From: a virus | Strand: one strand, 5' to 3' | Length of the DNA: 21,799 bases | Virus genome (UHGV): UHGV-1662791 | Shown here: positions 8,907 through 16,394 of the stretch, in pieces | How the letters are laid out: every line of letters starts with the position of its first letter | Numbering within the stretch: the first letter of the stretch is position 1 | Program-made: the position numbers and the translations under genes | The notes under the pieces: model-generated | Told to the model about the DNA's origin: nothing | Database searches by the model: none | The model's input: only the letters and a program-made list of their open reading frames with translations

Positions 8907-10112
8907 ATGGCGGTTGATATTAAAGATGTCGAACAGGTCGCGCAGGAGCTGCAGCAGAAGTTTGACGACTTCAAAGCAAAGAACGACAAGCGCGTGGATG
9001 CGATTGAGCAGGAAAAAGGCAAGCTTGCCGGGCAGGTGGAAACCCTGAACGGGAAACTCAGCGAGCTGGAAAATCTCAAAAGCGACCTTGAAAAAGAGCT
9101 GCTTGAGCTGAAACGTCCGGCAGGTGGAGCGCAAAATAAACTGGCCACCGAGCATAAAGAGGCGTTTGTGGGCTTCCTGCGTAAAGGCCGTGAAGACGGT
9201 CTGCGCGATCTGGAGCGTAAGGCATTGCAGGTGGGTACCGATGAAGACGGTGGCTACGCCGTGCCGGAAGCACTGGATCGCAACATTCTTAACCTGCTGA
9301 AAGATGAAGTGGTGATGCGTCAGGAAGCCACGGTGATCACCGTTGGCGGTTCCGACTACAAAAAACTGGTGAATCTGGGCGGTACGGCTTCCGGATGGGT
9401 GGGGGAAACGGATACGCGATCCCAGACTGCCACCTCCAGACTGGAGCTGATTGAACCTCTCATGGGGGAAATTTACGGCAACCCGCAGGCTACCCAGAAA
9501 ATGCTGGACGATGCCTTCTTCAACGTGGAGGCCTGGATCAACAGCGAGCTGGCAACCGAATTTGCCGAACAGGAAGAAATTGCCTTTACCTCAGGCGATG
9601 GCACCAAGAAGCCGAAAGGGTTCCTGGCGTATGAATCCACTGATGAAACCGACAAGGTCCGGGCGTTCGGCAAACTTCAGCATATTGTATCTGGCGAAGC
9701 GACGGCGGTGACCGCAGACGCCATTATCAAACTGATTTACACGCTGCGTAAGGCACACCGCACTGGCGCGAAGTTCATGATGAACAACAACAGCCTGTTT
9801 GCCATCCGTCTGCTTAAAGACAGCGAGGGTAACTATCTGTGGCGTCCGGGGCTGGAACTGGGGCAGCCGTCCTCTCTGGCGGGTTACGGTATCGCTGAAA
9901 ACGAACAGATGCCGGATATCGCCGCTGATGCGAAAGCCATTGCATTTGGTAACTTCAAACGGGGTTACACCATCGTTGACCGTATCGGCACCCGCATTCT
10001 GCGTGACCCGTACACCAATAAACCGTTTGTCGGTTTTTATACCACCAAGCGCACCGGCGGGATGCTGGTCGATTCGCAGGCCATCAAACTGCTGAAGATT
10101 GCAGCGGCGTAA
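8907..10112 (+). CDS. Major capsid protein (HK97 fold), with N-terminal coiled-coil delta-domain-like region
   Basis: 401 aa; AGGAGA RBS; N-terminal about 100 aa highly charged and coiled-coil-like (scaffold-like delta domain), then capsid body; follows the protease. Confidence 0.92.
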   Translation: MAVDIKDVEQVAQELQQKFDDFKAKNDKRVDAIEQEKGKLAGQVETLNGKLSELENLKSDLEKELLELKRPAGGAQNKLATEHKEAFVGFLRKGREDGLRDLERKALQVGTDEDGGYAVPEALDRNILNLLKDEVVMRQEATVITVGGSDYKKLVNLGGTASGWVGETDTRSQTATSRLELIEPLMGEIYGNPQATQKMLDDAFFNVEAWINSELATEFAEQEEIAFTSGDGTKKPKGFLAYESTDETDKVRAFGKLQHIVSGEATAVTADAIIKLIYTLRKAHRTGAKFMMNNNSLFAIRLLKDSEGNYLWRPGLELGQPSSLAGYGIAENEQMPDIAADAKAIAFGNFKRGYTIVDRIGTRILRDPYTNKPFVGFYTTKRTGGMLVDSQAIKLLKIAAA

Positions 10113-12312: not shown

Positions 12313-13792
12313 CACCATTCCGTCGAATACGCTGGTTCCGTTGTTTTATGCGGAAATGGATAACCAGGCGGCGAATACTGCACAGGACAGCGGAGCATCG
12401 CTGCTGATTGGTCATGCCAATAACGGTGCAGAGATTGTTGCCAACAGTCTGGTACTGATGCCGTCGGCAGACTATGCACGCCAGATTTGTGGTGTGGGAA
12501 GTCAGCTGGCGCGTATGGTCGAGGCTTATCGCCAGACCGACCCGTTTGGTGAGCTGTATGTGATTGCCGTTCCTGAATCCACGGGCGCGGCGGCAACGGT
12601 TACGCTGACGGTGACCGGGGCGGCAACCGAAACCGGCACGGTGAATGTTTATGTGGGACGTACCCGCGTACAGGCACCGGTGACCAACGGCGATAACGTC
12701 GCGACGATTGCCAGCAGTATCCAGGATGCCATTAATGCCGTTCCGGCCCTGCCGTTTACGGCCTCATCTTCGGCAGGCGTGGTCACGCTGACCGCGCGTC
12801 ATAAGGGGCTTTGCGGGAATGAAATTCCTGTCAGCCTCAATTACTACGGCTTTGGTGGGGGCGAAGTGCTGCCAGCGGGCGTACAGATTGCCGTGGCGAC
12901 GGGGAGCGCCGGAACGGGCGCTCCGGTTCTCACCGGTGCGGTGGCTGCAATGGCGGATGAGCCGTTTGATTATATTGGTCTGCCGTTCAACGACACGGCC
13001 TCCGTTAACACGCTGGTGACCGAGATGAACGATACCAGCGGTCGCTGGAGCTATGCGCGTCAGCTGTATGGTCATGTGTATACGGCAAAGACCGGCACAC
13101 TGTCAGAACTGGTGAACGCAGGTGACCAGTTTAACCAGCAGCACATCACCCTGGCGGGGTACGAAAAAGAGACCCAGACGCCAGCCGACGAGCTGGCGGC
13201 AAGCCGTACCGCCCGCGCAGCTGTGTTTATTCGCAACGATCCGGCACGTCCCACGCAGACCGGTGAGCTGGTGGGTATGCTGCCTGCGCCGAAGGGGAAA
13301 CGGTTCACGATGACCGAACAACAGACCCTGCTGTCTCATGGCGTGGCAACGGCGTATGTCGAAAGCGGGGTACTACGCATTCAGCGTGATGTCACCACGT
13401 ACAGGAAAAACGCTTACGGGGTTGCGGATAACAGTTACCTCGACAGTGAGACGCTGCATACCAGCGCGTATGTACTGCGCAAACTGAAATCCGTCATTAC
13501 CAGTAAGTACGGGCGTCACAAGCTTGCCAGTGACGGTACCCGCTTTGGTCCCGGTCAGGCGATTGTCACCCCGGCGGTGATCAAAGGGGAACTGCTGACA
13601 ACCTACCGTCAGCTTGAGCGTGCGGGGATCGTGGAAAACTACGAACTGTTTAAGCAGTACCTGGTTGTGGAGCGTGATGCCAGCGATCCGAACCGCCTGA
13701 ACACGCTGTTCCCGCCTGACTATGTTAACCAGCTGCGTGTCTTTGCCGTGGTTAATCAGTTCCGTCTTCAGTATTCAGAGGAGTCTGCATAA
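12296..13792 (+). CDS. Tail sheath protein (Mu gpL-like)
   Basis: 498 aa, the size of Mu-type sheath proteins, and directly followed by a 118-aa tube protein. Confidence 0.9.
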   Translation: MTISFNTIPSNTLVPLFYAEMDNQAANTAQDSGASLLIGHANNGAEIVANSLVLMPSADYARQICGVGSQLARMVEAYRQTDPFGELYVIAVPESTGAAATVTLTVTGAATETGTVNVYVGRTRVQAPVTNGDNVATIASSIQDAINAVPALPFTASSSAGVVTLTARHKGLCGNEIPVSLNYYGFGGGEVLPAGVQIAVATGSAGTGAPVLTGAVAAMADEPFDYIGLPFNDTASVNTLVTEMNDTSGRWSYARQLYGHVYTAKTGTLSELVNAGDQFNQQHITLAGYEKETQTPADELAASRTARAAVFIRNDPARPTQTGELVGMLPAPKGKRFTMTEQQTLLSHGVATAYVESGVLRIQRDVTTYRKNAYGVADNSYLDSETLHTSAYVLRKLKSVITSKYGRHKLASDGTRFGPGQAIVTPAVIKGELLTTYRQLERAGIVENYELFKQYLVVERDASDPNRLNTLFPPDYVNQLRVFAVVNQFRLQYSEESA

Positions 13793-14148
13793 TGGCCCGT
13801 ATCGGGGGAACCTGTTATTTCAAAATTGACGGTCAGCAGCTATCGCTGACCGGCGGCATTGAGGTGCCCATGAACAAAACGGTTAACGATGACATCATCG
13901 GCCTGGACGGTTCAGTGGACCGCAAGGAAACTCACCGTGCGCCTTATGTCAAAGGGACCTTCAAGGTGCCGAAGAATTTTCCGGTGAGCAAAATCACCTC
14001 GTCTGATGAGATGACCATCACTGCCGAGCTGGCGAACGGTCAGGTCTATGTATTGTCGTCTGCCTGGCTGCACGGCGAAGCGAACCATAATGCCGAAGAA
14101 GGCACGGTTGATCTTGAGTTCCACGGTGAAGAAGGGGATTACCAGTAA
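13792..14148 (+). CDS. Tail tube protein (Mu gpM-like)
   Basis: 118 aa; start overlaps the sheath stop (TAATG) and its stop overlaps the chaperone start (TAATG). Confidence 0.85.
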   Translation: MARIGGTCYFKIDGQQLSLTGGIEVPMNKTVNDDIIGLDGSVDRKETHRAPYVKGTFKVPKNFPVSKITSSDEMTITAELANGQVYVLSSAWLHGEANHNAEEGTVDLEFHGEEGDYQ

Positions 14149-14417
14149 TGAAAGAGCTTGAGTTAAAGAAACCGATTACTGCTCATGGCGAGACACTCTC
14201 CGTACTGGAGTTTGATGAACCCACCGGGAAGGATGTCCGCGAGCTGGGGTATCCCTACCAGATGAATCAGGATGAGTCAGTCAGACTTCTGGCGCATGTG
14301 GTGTCGAAATACATTGTGCGGCTGGCGAAAGTGCCGCAAAGCTCTGTCGACCAGATGTCTCCGGCAGACCTGAATGCAGCGGCGTGGCTTGTGGCTGGTT
14401 TTTTCCTCCAGGCCTGA
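14148..14417 (+). CDS. Tail assembly chaperone, short (0-frame) form
   Basis: 89 aa ORF between tube and tape measure genes; contains a slippery heptamer near its 3' end (see next feature). Confidence 0.7.
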   Translation: MKELELKKPITAHGETLSVLEFDEPTGKDVRELGYPYQMNQDESVRLLAHVVSKYIVRLAKVPQSSVDQMSPADLNAAAWLVAGFFLQA

Positions 14418-14572
14418 CGGCTGAATACCTCACTGATCGCTTCTTTGACTGCGCCAGCTACTGGCGCATTAATCCTTTCGAATTGCTGAATATGCCGATC
14501 AGTGAAATTCCCTTGCTGGTCAGTCAGGCAAACAGGATAGAGCAGGAGAAACGCACACATGGCGGAATTTGA
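14148..14572 (+). CDS. Tail assembly chaperone, predicted -1 frameshift-extended form
   Basis: Slippery heptamer T_TTT_TTC at 14399-14405 in the 0 frame; the -1 frame (ORF track 14384..14572) stays open to 14572, overlapping the tape measure start at 14559. Predicted fusion about 141 aa. Confidence 0.45.
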
Positions 14573-16394
14573 GCTTAAGGCGTTGATCACCGGTGTCGAC
14601 AGGCTTTCTCCCGCGCTGTCGAAAATGCAAAAGAAAATCCGGGGATTTAAACGCCAGGCGGAAGAAGCGTCACAGGGTGGGCTGGCGCTTGGTGGCGGAC
14701 TGGCAGCGGGTCTGACGCTTTCCCTGAAATCTTATGCCGATCAGGAAAACGCCGCCACCGGGCTGAAAGTCGCCATGATGGATGCGAACGGCGAGGTCGG
14801 AAAGCGCTTTCAGGACATCAATAAACTGGCTATTGGCCTGGGTAACCAGCTACCCGGTACAACGGCTGATTTCCAGAACATGATGCAGATGCTGGTGCGT
14901 CAGGGGATCCCGGCAGAAAACATTCTTGGCGGTGTGGGTAAAGCGACAGCTTATCTTGCGGTACAACTGAAAAAAACACCGGAAGCGGCTGCTGAGTTTG
15001 CTGCAAAGATGCAGGATGCTACCGGAACGGCGTCAGAAGACATGATGGGGCTGTTCGACACTATCCAGAAGGCGTTTTATCTGGGTGTTGACGATACCAA
15101 CATGTTGTCCTTCTTCACTAAAACCAGCTCTGTTCTGAAGATGGTGAACAAGGACGGTCTTCAGGCTGCACAGAGCCTTGCCCCCATCAGCGTCATGATG
15201 GATCAGATGGGGATGAACGGGGAGTCGGCAGGTAACGCCCTGCGAAAAGTTATCCAGTCCGGATTAAGCGTTAAGAAAATCAGGGACGTCAATAAAATCA
15301 TGGCCCGCCAGAAACTCGGGGTACAGCTCGATTTTACTGACGGCAAAGGAAGTTTTGGCGGTCTTGATAACATGTTCAGGCAACTGGCAAAGCTGCGAAA
15401 ACTGACCGACGTTAAGCGAACAGGTGTACTTAAGGCAATATTTGGTGATGATGCCGAAACCCTTCAGGTGGTCAATGCACTAATCGATAAAGGAAAGGAT
15501 GGCTACGATCAGATCCAGCAGAAGATGAATAAACAGGCCAGCCTGAATAAACGTGTTCAGGCCCAGCTTGGTACGCTGTCCAACCTGTGGGAGGCAATGA
15601 CGGGGACCGCAACTAACGGCCTTGCGGCTATTGGCGGCGCATTTTCTGGTGACGCCAAAAATATCACGCAATGGTTGGGGGAGTTAGGGGAAAAATTCAC
15701 GAAGTTTGCGGATGAAAATCCCCGGGTTATTCGCGGCGTCGTCGGGCTTGCTGCCGGTCTTGCGATTCTGAAACTGGGATTGATGGGCGTTGGCGGTGCC
15801 ATCAGTATTGTCAGCAGGATCATGTCGATGACGCCGATTGGAATGATTGCGACGGCGATAGCCCTGGCTGCGGGATTAATTATCACTAACTGGGATGTTG
15901 TCGGACCTTATTTCAAGAAGCTCTGGGAAACCATTGGTCCTTATTTTGAGGCTGGCTGGGAACTTCTGAAGAAGGTTTTTGCCTGGTCGCCGCTGGGGAT
16001 GGTAATCAATAACTGGGGACCGGTTGTTAAGTGGTTTCAGGATATGTGGGACAAACTGAAGCCAATTATTGAGTGGTTTACCGACAGTTCCGGTGACACG
16101 GTCGATGCCATTAACTCTGCGCAGTGGGGCGCGGGTGCTTATGATGCTTATGGGACGGGAATACCGGCACGGGGATACACACCTTATCAGGCGGTAGATC
16201 CGGCTCAGTCAAACAACGCCTCCGGTGCCACAGGCCCGAATCCCTTCATGATTAACAAAGCTTCTGCGCCAAAAGTTGATGGTGAGATCAAGGTCTCTTT
16301 TGTGAATTCGCCTCCGGGTATGCGGGTTATGGAAACGCGATCCAGCGGTTTTGATGTCAGCCATGATGTTGGCTATACGCGCTTTGGCAGGTAA
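14559..16394 (+). CDS. Tail tape measure protein
   Basis: 611 aa; Ala/Gly-rich with a hydrophobic central segment and Trp-rich C-terminal part; position after the chaperone pair. Confidence 0.88.
   Translation: MAEFELKALITGVDRLSPALSKMQKKIRGFKRQAEEASQGGLALGGGLAAGLTLSLKSYADQENAATGLKVAMMDANGEVGKRFQDINKLAIGLGNQLPGTTADFQNMMQMLVRQGIPAENILGGVGKATAYLAVQLKKTPEAAAEFAAKMQDATGTASEDMMGLFDTIQKAFYLGVDDTNMLSFFTKTSSVLKMVNKDGLQAAQSLAPISVMMDQMGMNGESAGNALRKVIQSGLSVKKIRDVNKIMARQKLGVQLDFTDGKGSFGGLDNMFRQLAKLRKLTDVKRTGVLKAIFGDDAETLQVVNALIDKGKDGYDQIQQKMNKQASLNKRVQAQLGTLSNLWEAMTGTATNGLAAIGGAFSGDAKNITQWLGELGEKFTKFADENPRVIRGVVGLAAGLAILKLGLMGVGGAISIVSRIMSMTPIGMIATAIALAAGLIITNWDVVGPYFKKLWETIGPYFEAGWELLKKVFAWSPLGMVINNWGPVVKWFQDMWDKLKPIIEWFTDSSGDTVDAINSAQWGAGAYDAYGTGIPARGYTPYQAVDPAQSNNASGATGPNPFMINKASAPKVDGEIKVSFVNSPPGMRVMETRSSGFDVSHDVGYTRFGR

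Follow-up and report, generated by a model that had tools for sequence, protein, structure and literature searches.

A probable −1 ribosomal frameshift in the gene for the tail assembly chaperone of an SfV-like prophage

Introduction

In bacteriophage lambda, the tail assembly chaperone is produced in two forms, G and the frameshifted GT, at a ratio of approximately 30:1; the binding partner of both forms is the tape measure protein, and that of the T part is the tube subunit (PMC5009743). This is the conserved chaperone frameshift arrangement of Xu, Hendrix and Duda (2004), as far as it is related in PMC5009743 and PMC2628397. A −1 frameshift without a downstream structure has also been described for the E and E+E' products of bacteriophage P2 (PMC3091744), at a level said to be 2- to 3-fold above the approximately 1 in 30 of lambda (PMC5009743), and a −2 shift has been reported for gp41 of bacteriophage Mu (PMC2628397). 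In the present study, we analyzed the tail assembly chaperone locus of the viral genome UHGV-1662791, a stretch of 21,799 nucleotides (nt) that is referred to hereafter as the window. Besides a chaperone of 89 amino acids (aa), this locus is highly likely to specify a 141-aa fusion protein by −1 slippage of the ribosome on a T_TTT_TTC heptamer, in the manner of P2 E/E+E'.

Results

Anatomy of the predicted frameshift site

The open reading frame (ORF) of the chaperone extends from an ATG at 14148, which overlaps the stop codon of the tail tube gene (TAATG), to a TGA at 14415-14417, and its product ends in ...WLVAGFFLQA. The identification of this product as a tail assembly chaperone, which had been made in a sequence-only reading of the same DNA, was supported by a match to the Pfam family PF10109 (Phage_TAC_7; 60.3 bits against a cutoff of 25, E value 1.9e-16), which is described as 'E, or 41 or 14', by a match to the tail protein family phrog_166 (E value 7e-24), and by the gene order of tube (PF10618), chaperone and tape measure (PF10145). 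The PF10109 match covered residues 4-86 of the protein and positions 2-78 of the 79 in the profile. Residue 86 is exactly the slip site, and the heptamer is thus positioned at the C-terminal edge of the domain.

The zero-frame codons in this region are GGT (14397-14399), TTT (14400-14402), TTC (14403-14405), CTC, CAG, GCC and TGA, which place the heptamer in the canonical X_XXY_YYZ phase, three sense codons ahead of the zero-frame stop. After a −1 slip, the next codon would be CCT (14405-14407), followed by CCA, GGC, CTG and ACG, and the product would read ...AGFF/PPGLTAEY..., in which the slash marks the junction. The predicted tryptic peptide spanning this junction is VPQSSVDQMSPADLNAAAWLVAGFFPPGLTAEYLTDR (37 aa). 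The −1 frame runs for 55 codons, and the predicted fusion would accordingly contain 86 + 55 = 141 residues. The ORF, heptamer, phase, stop, fusion of approximately 141 aa and overlap with the tape measure gene had all been proposed from the sequence alone, and every coordinate agreed with the sequence on inspection. The features of the locus are as follows.

14148-14417, + strand: tail assembly chaperone gene (equivalent of G or P2 E), 89 aa; from the ORF list, PF10109 and phrog_166.
14399-14405, + strand: slippery heptamer T_TTT_TTC; from the sequence and its X_XXY_YYZ phase.
14405-14572, + strand: predicted −1 frame extension (equivalent of T or P2 E'), 55 codons plus TGA at 14570-14572; PPGLTAEY...RTHGGI, phrog_32181.
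14148-14572, + strand: predicted fusion 'GT', 141 aa; codons of 14148-14405 plus 14405-14569, with base 14405 read twice.
13792-14148, + strand: tail tube gene (PF10618 Tail_tube, E value 3.3e-33), adjoining the chaperone gene on its 5' side.
14544-14548, + strand: Shine-Dalgarno sequence AGGAG of the tape measure gene, inside the −1 extension and 10 nt before the ATG at 14559; read from the sequence.
14559-16394, + strand: tape measure gene, 611 aa (PF10145 PhageMin_Tail, E value 6.8e-27); its opening 14 nt are shared with the end of the extension.

The extension matched phrog_32181 (function unknown) with an E value of 4.7e-40; it has evidently been taken for a small ORF of its own in phage annotation. 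The overlap between the extension and the tape measure gene is 14 nt in the window and in loci L104 and L105 of the relatives described below, and 8 nt in 16 of the 27 relatives, P2 among them. The extension of the window is two codons longer than that of Shigella phage SfV (...THGGI versus ...THG; 14566-14572 of the window compared with 2268-2275 of the SfV locus L002), which accounts for the longer overlap.

Within the window, the heptamer by itself is not beyond chance, and its significance rests on conservation in relatives. The sequence TTTTTTY occurs 13 times against an expected 8.9 ± 4.0, and 14 in-frame XXXYYYZ heptamers are present in the ORFs of at least 80 aa on the + strand. Only two of these 14, namely, the chaperone site and a site at 9615, lead into a −1 frame that stays open for 40 or more codons beyond the zero-frame stop. 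The second site, A_AAG_GGT at 9615-9621, was rejected as an artefact of ORF listing because it belongs to a spurious ORF with a TTG start (9451-9711) nested in the major capsid gene (8907-10112). An antisense ORF over the frameshift region (14267-14590, − strand, 107 aa) was also set aside as probably spurious; it had no Pfam hit, and the substitution pattern in the region is explained by the + strand frames.

An AlphaFold model of the 141-aa fusion from the single sequence was unusable (mean predicted local distance difference test score 46, predicted template modelling score 0.29), and a sequence search of the PDB with the fusion profile gave nothing credible, the top match being an unrelated reductase with an E value of 0.17.

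Comparison with P2, lambda and Mu

The locus is a diverged homologue of P2 E/E+E', from the FETUD tail operon of that phage, upstream of the predicted shift and probably also downstream of it. The N-terminal domain is PF10109 in both phages (in P2 E+E', residues 7-85 matched with 47.8 bits), its end falling at the shift site in each case (residue 85 of the P2 protein, residue 86 of that in the window). The sizes of the two products are also similar, with 91 and 142 aa for P2 E and E+E' and 89 and 141 aa for the window. A T-rich heptamer is found in the same phase at G-F-(F/L) in each phage, the P2 context being ...VVGFL, and the extension terminates just past the tape measure start (8 nt inside gene T of P2, 14 nt in the window). 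Neither phage has a downstream structure, according to PMC3091744 in the case of P2. When a profile of 18 extensions was aligned with P2 E' using hhalign, a probability of 89.8% and an E value of 1.8e-6 were obtained over 36 columns, and two of the 18 extensions directly hit PF06528 (Phage_P2_GpE), with a best E value of 2e-6. The differences from P2 are the last base of the heptamer (T_TTT_TTG in P2, T_TTT_TTC in the window), the length of the zero-frame tail (six codons in P2, three in the window), an overall identity of only approximately 24%, and the surrounding tail module, which is Mu-like in the window (DNA circulation protein, gp44 to gp48). A full-length profile gave a weak match to P2 E+E' (E value 0.019, probability 2.4%).

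The sequence-only reading had described a G/GT-type arrangement. [quoted passage not shown] By sequence, however, the family is P2 E/E+E' and not lambda G/GT. No sequence similarity to lambda G was detected, and a Pfam scan of the 89- and 141-aa products gave PF10109 only. Furthermore, the lambda heptamer is G_GGA_AAG, read by Gly and Lys tRNAs, whereas that of the window is read by Phe tRNAs at both codons, and lambda has a siphovirus tail, whereas the phage of the window has a contractile tail. Lambda gpG/gpGT is, therefore, an analogue, and the window protein is not a demonstrable member of its family.

The tail module of Mu has the same content and order as that of the window, namely, sheath, tube, chaperone, tape measure, DNA circulation protein and gp44 to gp48, and Mu gp41 also showed a weak match to PF10109 (24.7 bits). 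However, Mu gp41 has 144 aa and belongs to PF23746 (119.5 bits), to which the window protein had no hit. The downstream open frame is +1 (equivalently −2) in Mu and −1 in the window, and no T_TTT_TTY site is present in Mu. Membership of the Mu gp41 family, with its −2 shift, was rejected because of the missing PF23746 hit and the −1 frame of the extension.

Conservation in relatives

With the fusion as query, tblastn gave matches split between two adjacent frames for 23 of 30 phage records, at identities as low as approximately 40%. We also scanned genomes, one per species, with patterns derived only from the N-terminal 79 residues; these patterns were built on an alignment of four sequences cut upstream of the slip site, which avoids a bias towards the heptamer. 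The scan yielded 29 loci in 28 species, among Enterobacterales, Burkholderiales, Rhodocyclaceae, Methylophaga, Acetobacteraceae and others. Of the 29 loci, 25 have an in-phase heptamer at the homologous G-F-F and, in the −1 frame behind it, 47-61 aa of homologous extension that stop at the start of the tape measure gene; seven diverged phages (39-76% protein identity) likewise keep the heptamer, its phase and a homologous −1 extension. The core of the extension is conserved as A-x-[FYV]-[WF]-[RKH]-x-x-[PR] ... A-x-R-I.

When 27 diverged relatives, P2 among them, were compared over the first 45 codons past the heptamer, all 27 had an open −1 frame, three an open +1 frame and none an open zero frame; the zero-frame tail past the heptamer comprises 2 to 22 codons and is unconserved. 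The sequence-only reading had held this arrangement to be conserved among tailed phages, and had named stops or a lack of conservation in the −1 frame of close homologues as evidence against it; the comparison was in its favor on both counts, as the −1 frame is open in all relatives and conserved as protein.

Nucleotide patterns change at the same position. Among ten relatives that align without gaps, 66.6% of pairwise differences upstream of the heptamer fall at the wobble position of frame 0, and 55.7% of those downstream fall at the wobble position of the −1 frame. Purifying selection on the protein thus shifts by one base at the heptamer. The phase X_XXY_YYZ is retained at all 28 diverse sites compared, including P2, at which the heptamer is TTTTTTC in 20, TTTTTTT in five, TTTTTTG in two and GGGTTTT in one. 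T_TTT_TTG is the heptamer of P2 and lineage L118, TTTTTTT occurs in the group of ST64B, SfIV and phiP27, and the site of lineage L117 is G_GGT_TTT, a different canonical slippery heptamer without a long homopolymer. Information content is 1.8-2.0 bits at positions 1-6 of the heptamer and at most 1.2 bits at all flanking positions but one. The codon before the heptamer is GGT, CGT, AAT, CCT, AGT or GAT and thus specifies six different amino acids, yet it ends in T in 27 of 27 relatives (25.5% T at third positions elsewhere in these genes). The first Phe codon of the site is always TTT, while the other Phe codons in these genes are TTC in 26 cases and TTT in 15. Selection, as read from these alignments, acts on the nucleotides of the heptamer themselves, besides the protein.

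These comparisons bear on two other explanations of the locus. If the extension were a gene of its own, the 62-aa ORF at 14384-14572 would start independently at GTG 14384, and no fusion would be formed. A GTG is present in the −1 frame at that position, and this ORF was called as a hypothetical protein in one GenBank record and in many draft genomes; however, the sequence upstream of it is gcagcggc, with no purine-rich Shine-Dalgarno sequence, and the GTG is not conserved. In ST64B, F1055, SfIV, phiP27 and BgVeeders33, the −1 frame contains no start codon (ATG, GTG or TTG) from the upstream stop nearest the heptamer through the 20th codon after it, and therefore the extension cannot be a separate gene in these five diverged relatives. 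In AH07, a −1 frame start codon occurs only after the heptamer. The peptide is still conserved in all of these phages. In Caballeronia, as described below, the extension homologue may start alone at a GTG after GAGGGG, which is a point in favor of two genes; nevertheless, this explanation offers no reason why the nucleotides of the heptamer and the wobble T before it should be conserved, and the homologous P2 product is a fusion. We consider separate genes to be very improbable in the window.

The other explanation is that the site has no function, and that a chance T run, or a chaperone gene broken by an insertion or deletion in a decaying prophage, is followed by an accidentally open −1 frame. 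The heptamer count of the window, the fact that the element is a prophage and the degraded copy in Serratia symbiotica are in keeping with this idea, which is difficult to reconcile with the occurrence of the same arrangement in the plaque-forming or inducible phages SfV, SfI, SfII, SfIV, ST64B, phiP27, EPP-1 and AH07, and from Enterobacterales and Burkholderiales to Rhodocyclaceae, Methylophaga and others. Since the −1 frame is also open in every relative compared and the extension is under purifying selection in that frame, the comparative evidence has effectively refuted a lack of function, to which we assign the lowest probability of the readings considered.

Several individual loci differ from the common pattern. 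The copy in S. symbiotica (L103:1381-1600) is decayed, with stops in the chaperone and extension; it still has T_TTT_TTC and a −1 frame remnant, YDCAKYWVINP. In a metagenome-assembled genome of an uncultured proteobacterium (L116:1440-1880), T_TTT_TTC is found at the homologous position and the −1 frame is open for 143 codons without the FW..P...A.RI motif; this extension may be a different or fused module. In Caballeronia cordobensis and C. novacaledonica (L108:1381-1700 and L110:1381-1700), the chaperone ends in ...GGC TTC TTC GGT..., with no slippery heptamer, and the extension homologue (VFDLAYFWKISPAEVMAL...) lies in the +1 frame and starts at a GTG preceded by GAGGGG. This arrangement reflects either independent initiation or a +1/−2 shift as proposed for Mu, and, among members of this family, provides a natural exception to the −1 design.

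Length variants of the T run were also observed. A 1-nt insertion (GGG plus T6 or GG plus T7) at approximately position 850 of loci L122 and L123 (Escherichia coli GCA_000714335 and GCA_000700445) and L124 and L125 (Logan assemblies) puts the chaperone and extension in one frame, and therefore exact fusions of 139 and 141 aa are found in protein databases, such as KDU22203.1, a 'FluMu gp41 family protein'. A run of T5 was present in two of 80 IMG/VR copies, and a scan of viral contigs gave near-identical copies only. The T5 and insertion variants are either homopolymer sequencing errors or real insertions and deletions.

Stimulators, efficiency and possible transcriptional slippage

Canonical X_XXY_YYZ heptamers for tandem slippage are also decoded by E. 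coli ribosomes in dnaX and in the insertion sequence (IS) elements IS3 and IS911. These systems rely on stimulators that may lie upstream (a Shine-Dalgarno-like element), downstream (a hairpin or pseudoknot) or on both sides, and none of these is conserved at the window site; assignment to this stimulated type of programmed −1 ribosomal frameshifting cassette was rejected because no conserved 3' structure at 5-9 nt and no Shine-Dalgarno-like element 6-17 nt upstream were found. The heptamer U_UU.U_UU.C itself serves some IS elements, and the H_HH.U_UU.Y class ranks with the most efficient motifs (PMC4066793). Reporter constructs in E. coli showed 0.12% shifting on unstimulated U_UU.U_UU.C, 0.89% when the IS911 signal was present and 7.6% when the IS3 pseudoknot was, as well as approximately 0.12% on bare U_UUU_UUG (PMC4066793 supplement).

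Several points weigh against ribosomal slippage of the P2 type. The 102 nt downstream of the heptamer had a minimum free energy z score of −1.18, and the consensus fold of 16 homologues (−4.1 kcal/mol) consisted of a single 5-bp helix located 44 nt downstream, versus the usual 5-9 nt. An internal Shine-Dalgarno-like element upstream had no supporting conservation of flanking nucleotides at the 28 sites, and an Rfam scan of 14100-14800 matched no family, with one sub-threshold chance hit to a CRISPR repeat. The window's own extension gave no hit to PF06528 in a direct hidden Markov model scan, even at E values up to 10. Because the bare heptamer shifts at only approximately 0.1% in reporters, the efficiency could be very low or stimulator-dependent. 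Moreover, the site is a homopolymer, T6 in the window and T7 in the ST64B, SfIV and phiP27 group, on which RNA polymerase might slip.

The helix of the consensus fold corresponds to a local hairpin of the window at 14450-14468, a perfect 8-bp stem (UGCGCCAG-cua-CUGGCGCA) within the C-A-S-Y-W-R-I codons. It is kept with loop changes in close relatives, and not in the ST64B, SfIV and phiP27 group. The hairpin is too distant for a classical stimulator, and its presence may be a consequence of the peptide's conservation.

The gap between the reporter value of approximately 0.12% and the level described for P2 suggests an effect of context in this chaperone family. A site that works without RNA structure at a P2-like level of several percent, via a stimulator common to the PF10109 family, is a reading that we hold to be unlikely. 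Candidates for such a stimulator may be the conserved hydrophobic nascent peptide (W/M-x-V/I-A/x-G-F-F) in the exit tunnel or partial slippage of RNA polymerase on the T run.

In full transcriptional slippage, RNA polymerase would add an extra U on the T6 run, and standard translation would then give the same 141-aa fusion. Besides the homopolymer, this explanation is favored by the low ribosomal value of the bare heptamer in combination with the lack of a conserved stimulator, and by the one-base insertions at the run in a few assemblies, which indicate that the run is slippage-prone at some level; UUUUUUU is also under-represented in all three frames, possibly for this reason (PMC4066793). 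Nevertheless, the phase X_XXY_YYZ, which polymerase slippage does not require, is kept at all 28 sites, and the G_GGT_TTT of lineage L117, which has no long homopolymer, and the T_TTT_TTG of P2 and L118 argue for the ribosome, the former being a canonical ribosomal site. The run in the window is also short; efficient transcriptional slippage in bacteria usually needs runs of approximately nine or more. The homologous P2 site was published as a translational frameshift, reportedly in the title of a paper by Christie et al. in 2002. Taken together, we regard transcriptional slippage as improbable as the source of the fusion. The mass spectrometric detection of the junction peptide, which had been suggested with the initial prediction, cannot by itself discriminate between ribosomal and transcriptional slippage because both yield the same peptide.

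Host element and distribution

The window represents an SfV-like prophage, with 98.9% identity to Shigella phage SfV across 13792-14800. It combines a lambdoid late region with an HK97-type head module (terminase, portal, protease and capsid) and a contractile tail module of the Mu type (terminator, sheath, tube, chaperone, tape measure, DNA circulation protein and homologues of gp44 to gp48), and it carries a Q antiterminator and an Rz lysis gene. In a scan for promoters and terminators, none was detected on the + strand that would separate the genes. The chaperone locus is also present in the Shigella phages SfV, SfI, SfII and SfIV, which convert serotype, and 1089 of 5426 complete E. coli genomes, or approximately one-fifth, have a related locus, many O157:H7 strains among them.

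Public annotation

A joined coding sequence was annotated at this locus in none of the records inspected, which comprised RefSeq E. coli O157:H7, SfV, SfIV, ST64B, phiP27, F1055, EPP-1, AH07 and BgVeeders33. In these records, the chaperone gene, which is labelled 'phage tail assembly protein' in the RefSeq E. coli and SfV records, is followed by a gap up to the tape measure gene, and the gap measures 141 nt in those closest to the window. One GenBank record places a 60-aa hypothetical protein in it, and the 62-aa ORF with the GTG start (14384-14572) is a 'hypothetical protein' on 921 contigs. The expectation of the sequence-only reading that gene callers would miss or split off the second part was therefore correct. 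In contrast, E+E' is entered in the P2 record as a join of two pieces, and a 'site of -1 translational frameshift' is marked. A full-text literature search found no paper on a TTTTTTC frameshift in a tail assembly chaperone, and the heptamer survey of E. coli by Sharma et al. lists five prophage clusters, none of which is this chaperone gene.

Discussion

The present comparison suggests a simple scheme for the expression of the chaperone locus. tRNA-Phe decodes both UUU and UUC, and tRNAs in the P and A sites of such a heptamer can re-pair perfectly one base back. Most ribosomes would read 14148-14417 and release the 89-aa chaperone. In a minority, the two tRNA-Phe, one on UUU (P site) and the other on UUC (A site), would re-pair one base back on U_UUU_UUC, and these ribosomes would continue in the −1 frame to 14572 and complete the fusion of 141 aa. 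Judging from the analogous lambda G/GT and the homologous P2 E/E+E', the common N-terminal domain probably mediates binding of both proteins to the tape measure protein, and recruitment of the tube subunit probably falls to the rare C-terminal extension. The mRNA itself would thereby hold the two products at a fixed, low ratio, and neither the chaperone nor the fusion is expected in the finished virion. We infer in this scheme the ribosomal slippage itself, its efficiency, which is probably a few percent or less, and the role in assembly.

The locus is an ordinary member of a known recoding class with a textbook mechanism, and is unannotated in the public records that we inspected. As a correction to these records, the 141-nt gap is to be read as the coding sequence of a recoded product, which is probably essential for tail assembly, and the missing annotation of the fusion affects predictions of prophage intactness as well as the engineering of these tails. 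The relatives of this locus provide a natural series for structure-independent −1 shifting at Phe-Phe sites, with T_TTT_TTC, T_TTT_TTT, T_TTT_TTG and G_GGT_TTT, and this series also takes in Caballeronia and Mu, in which the extension is found in the +1 frame.

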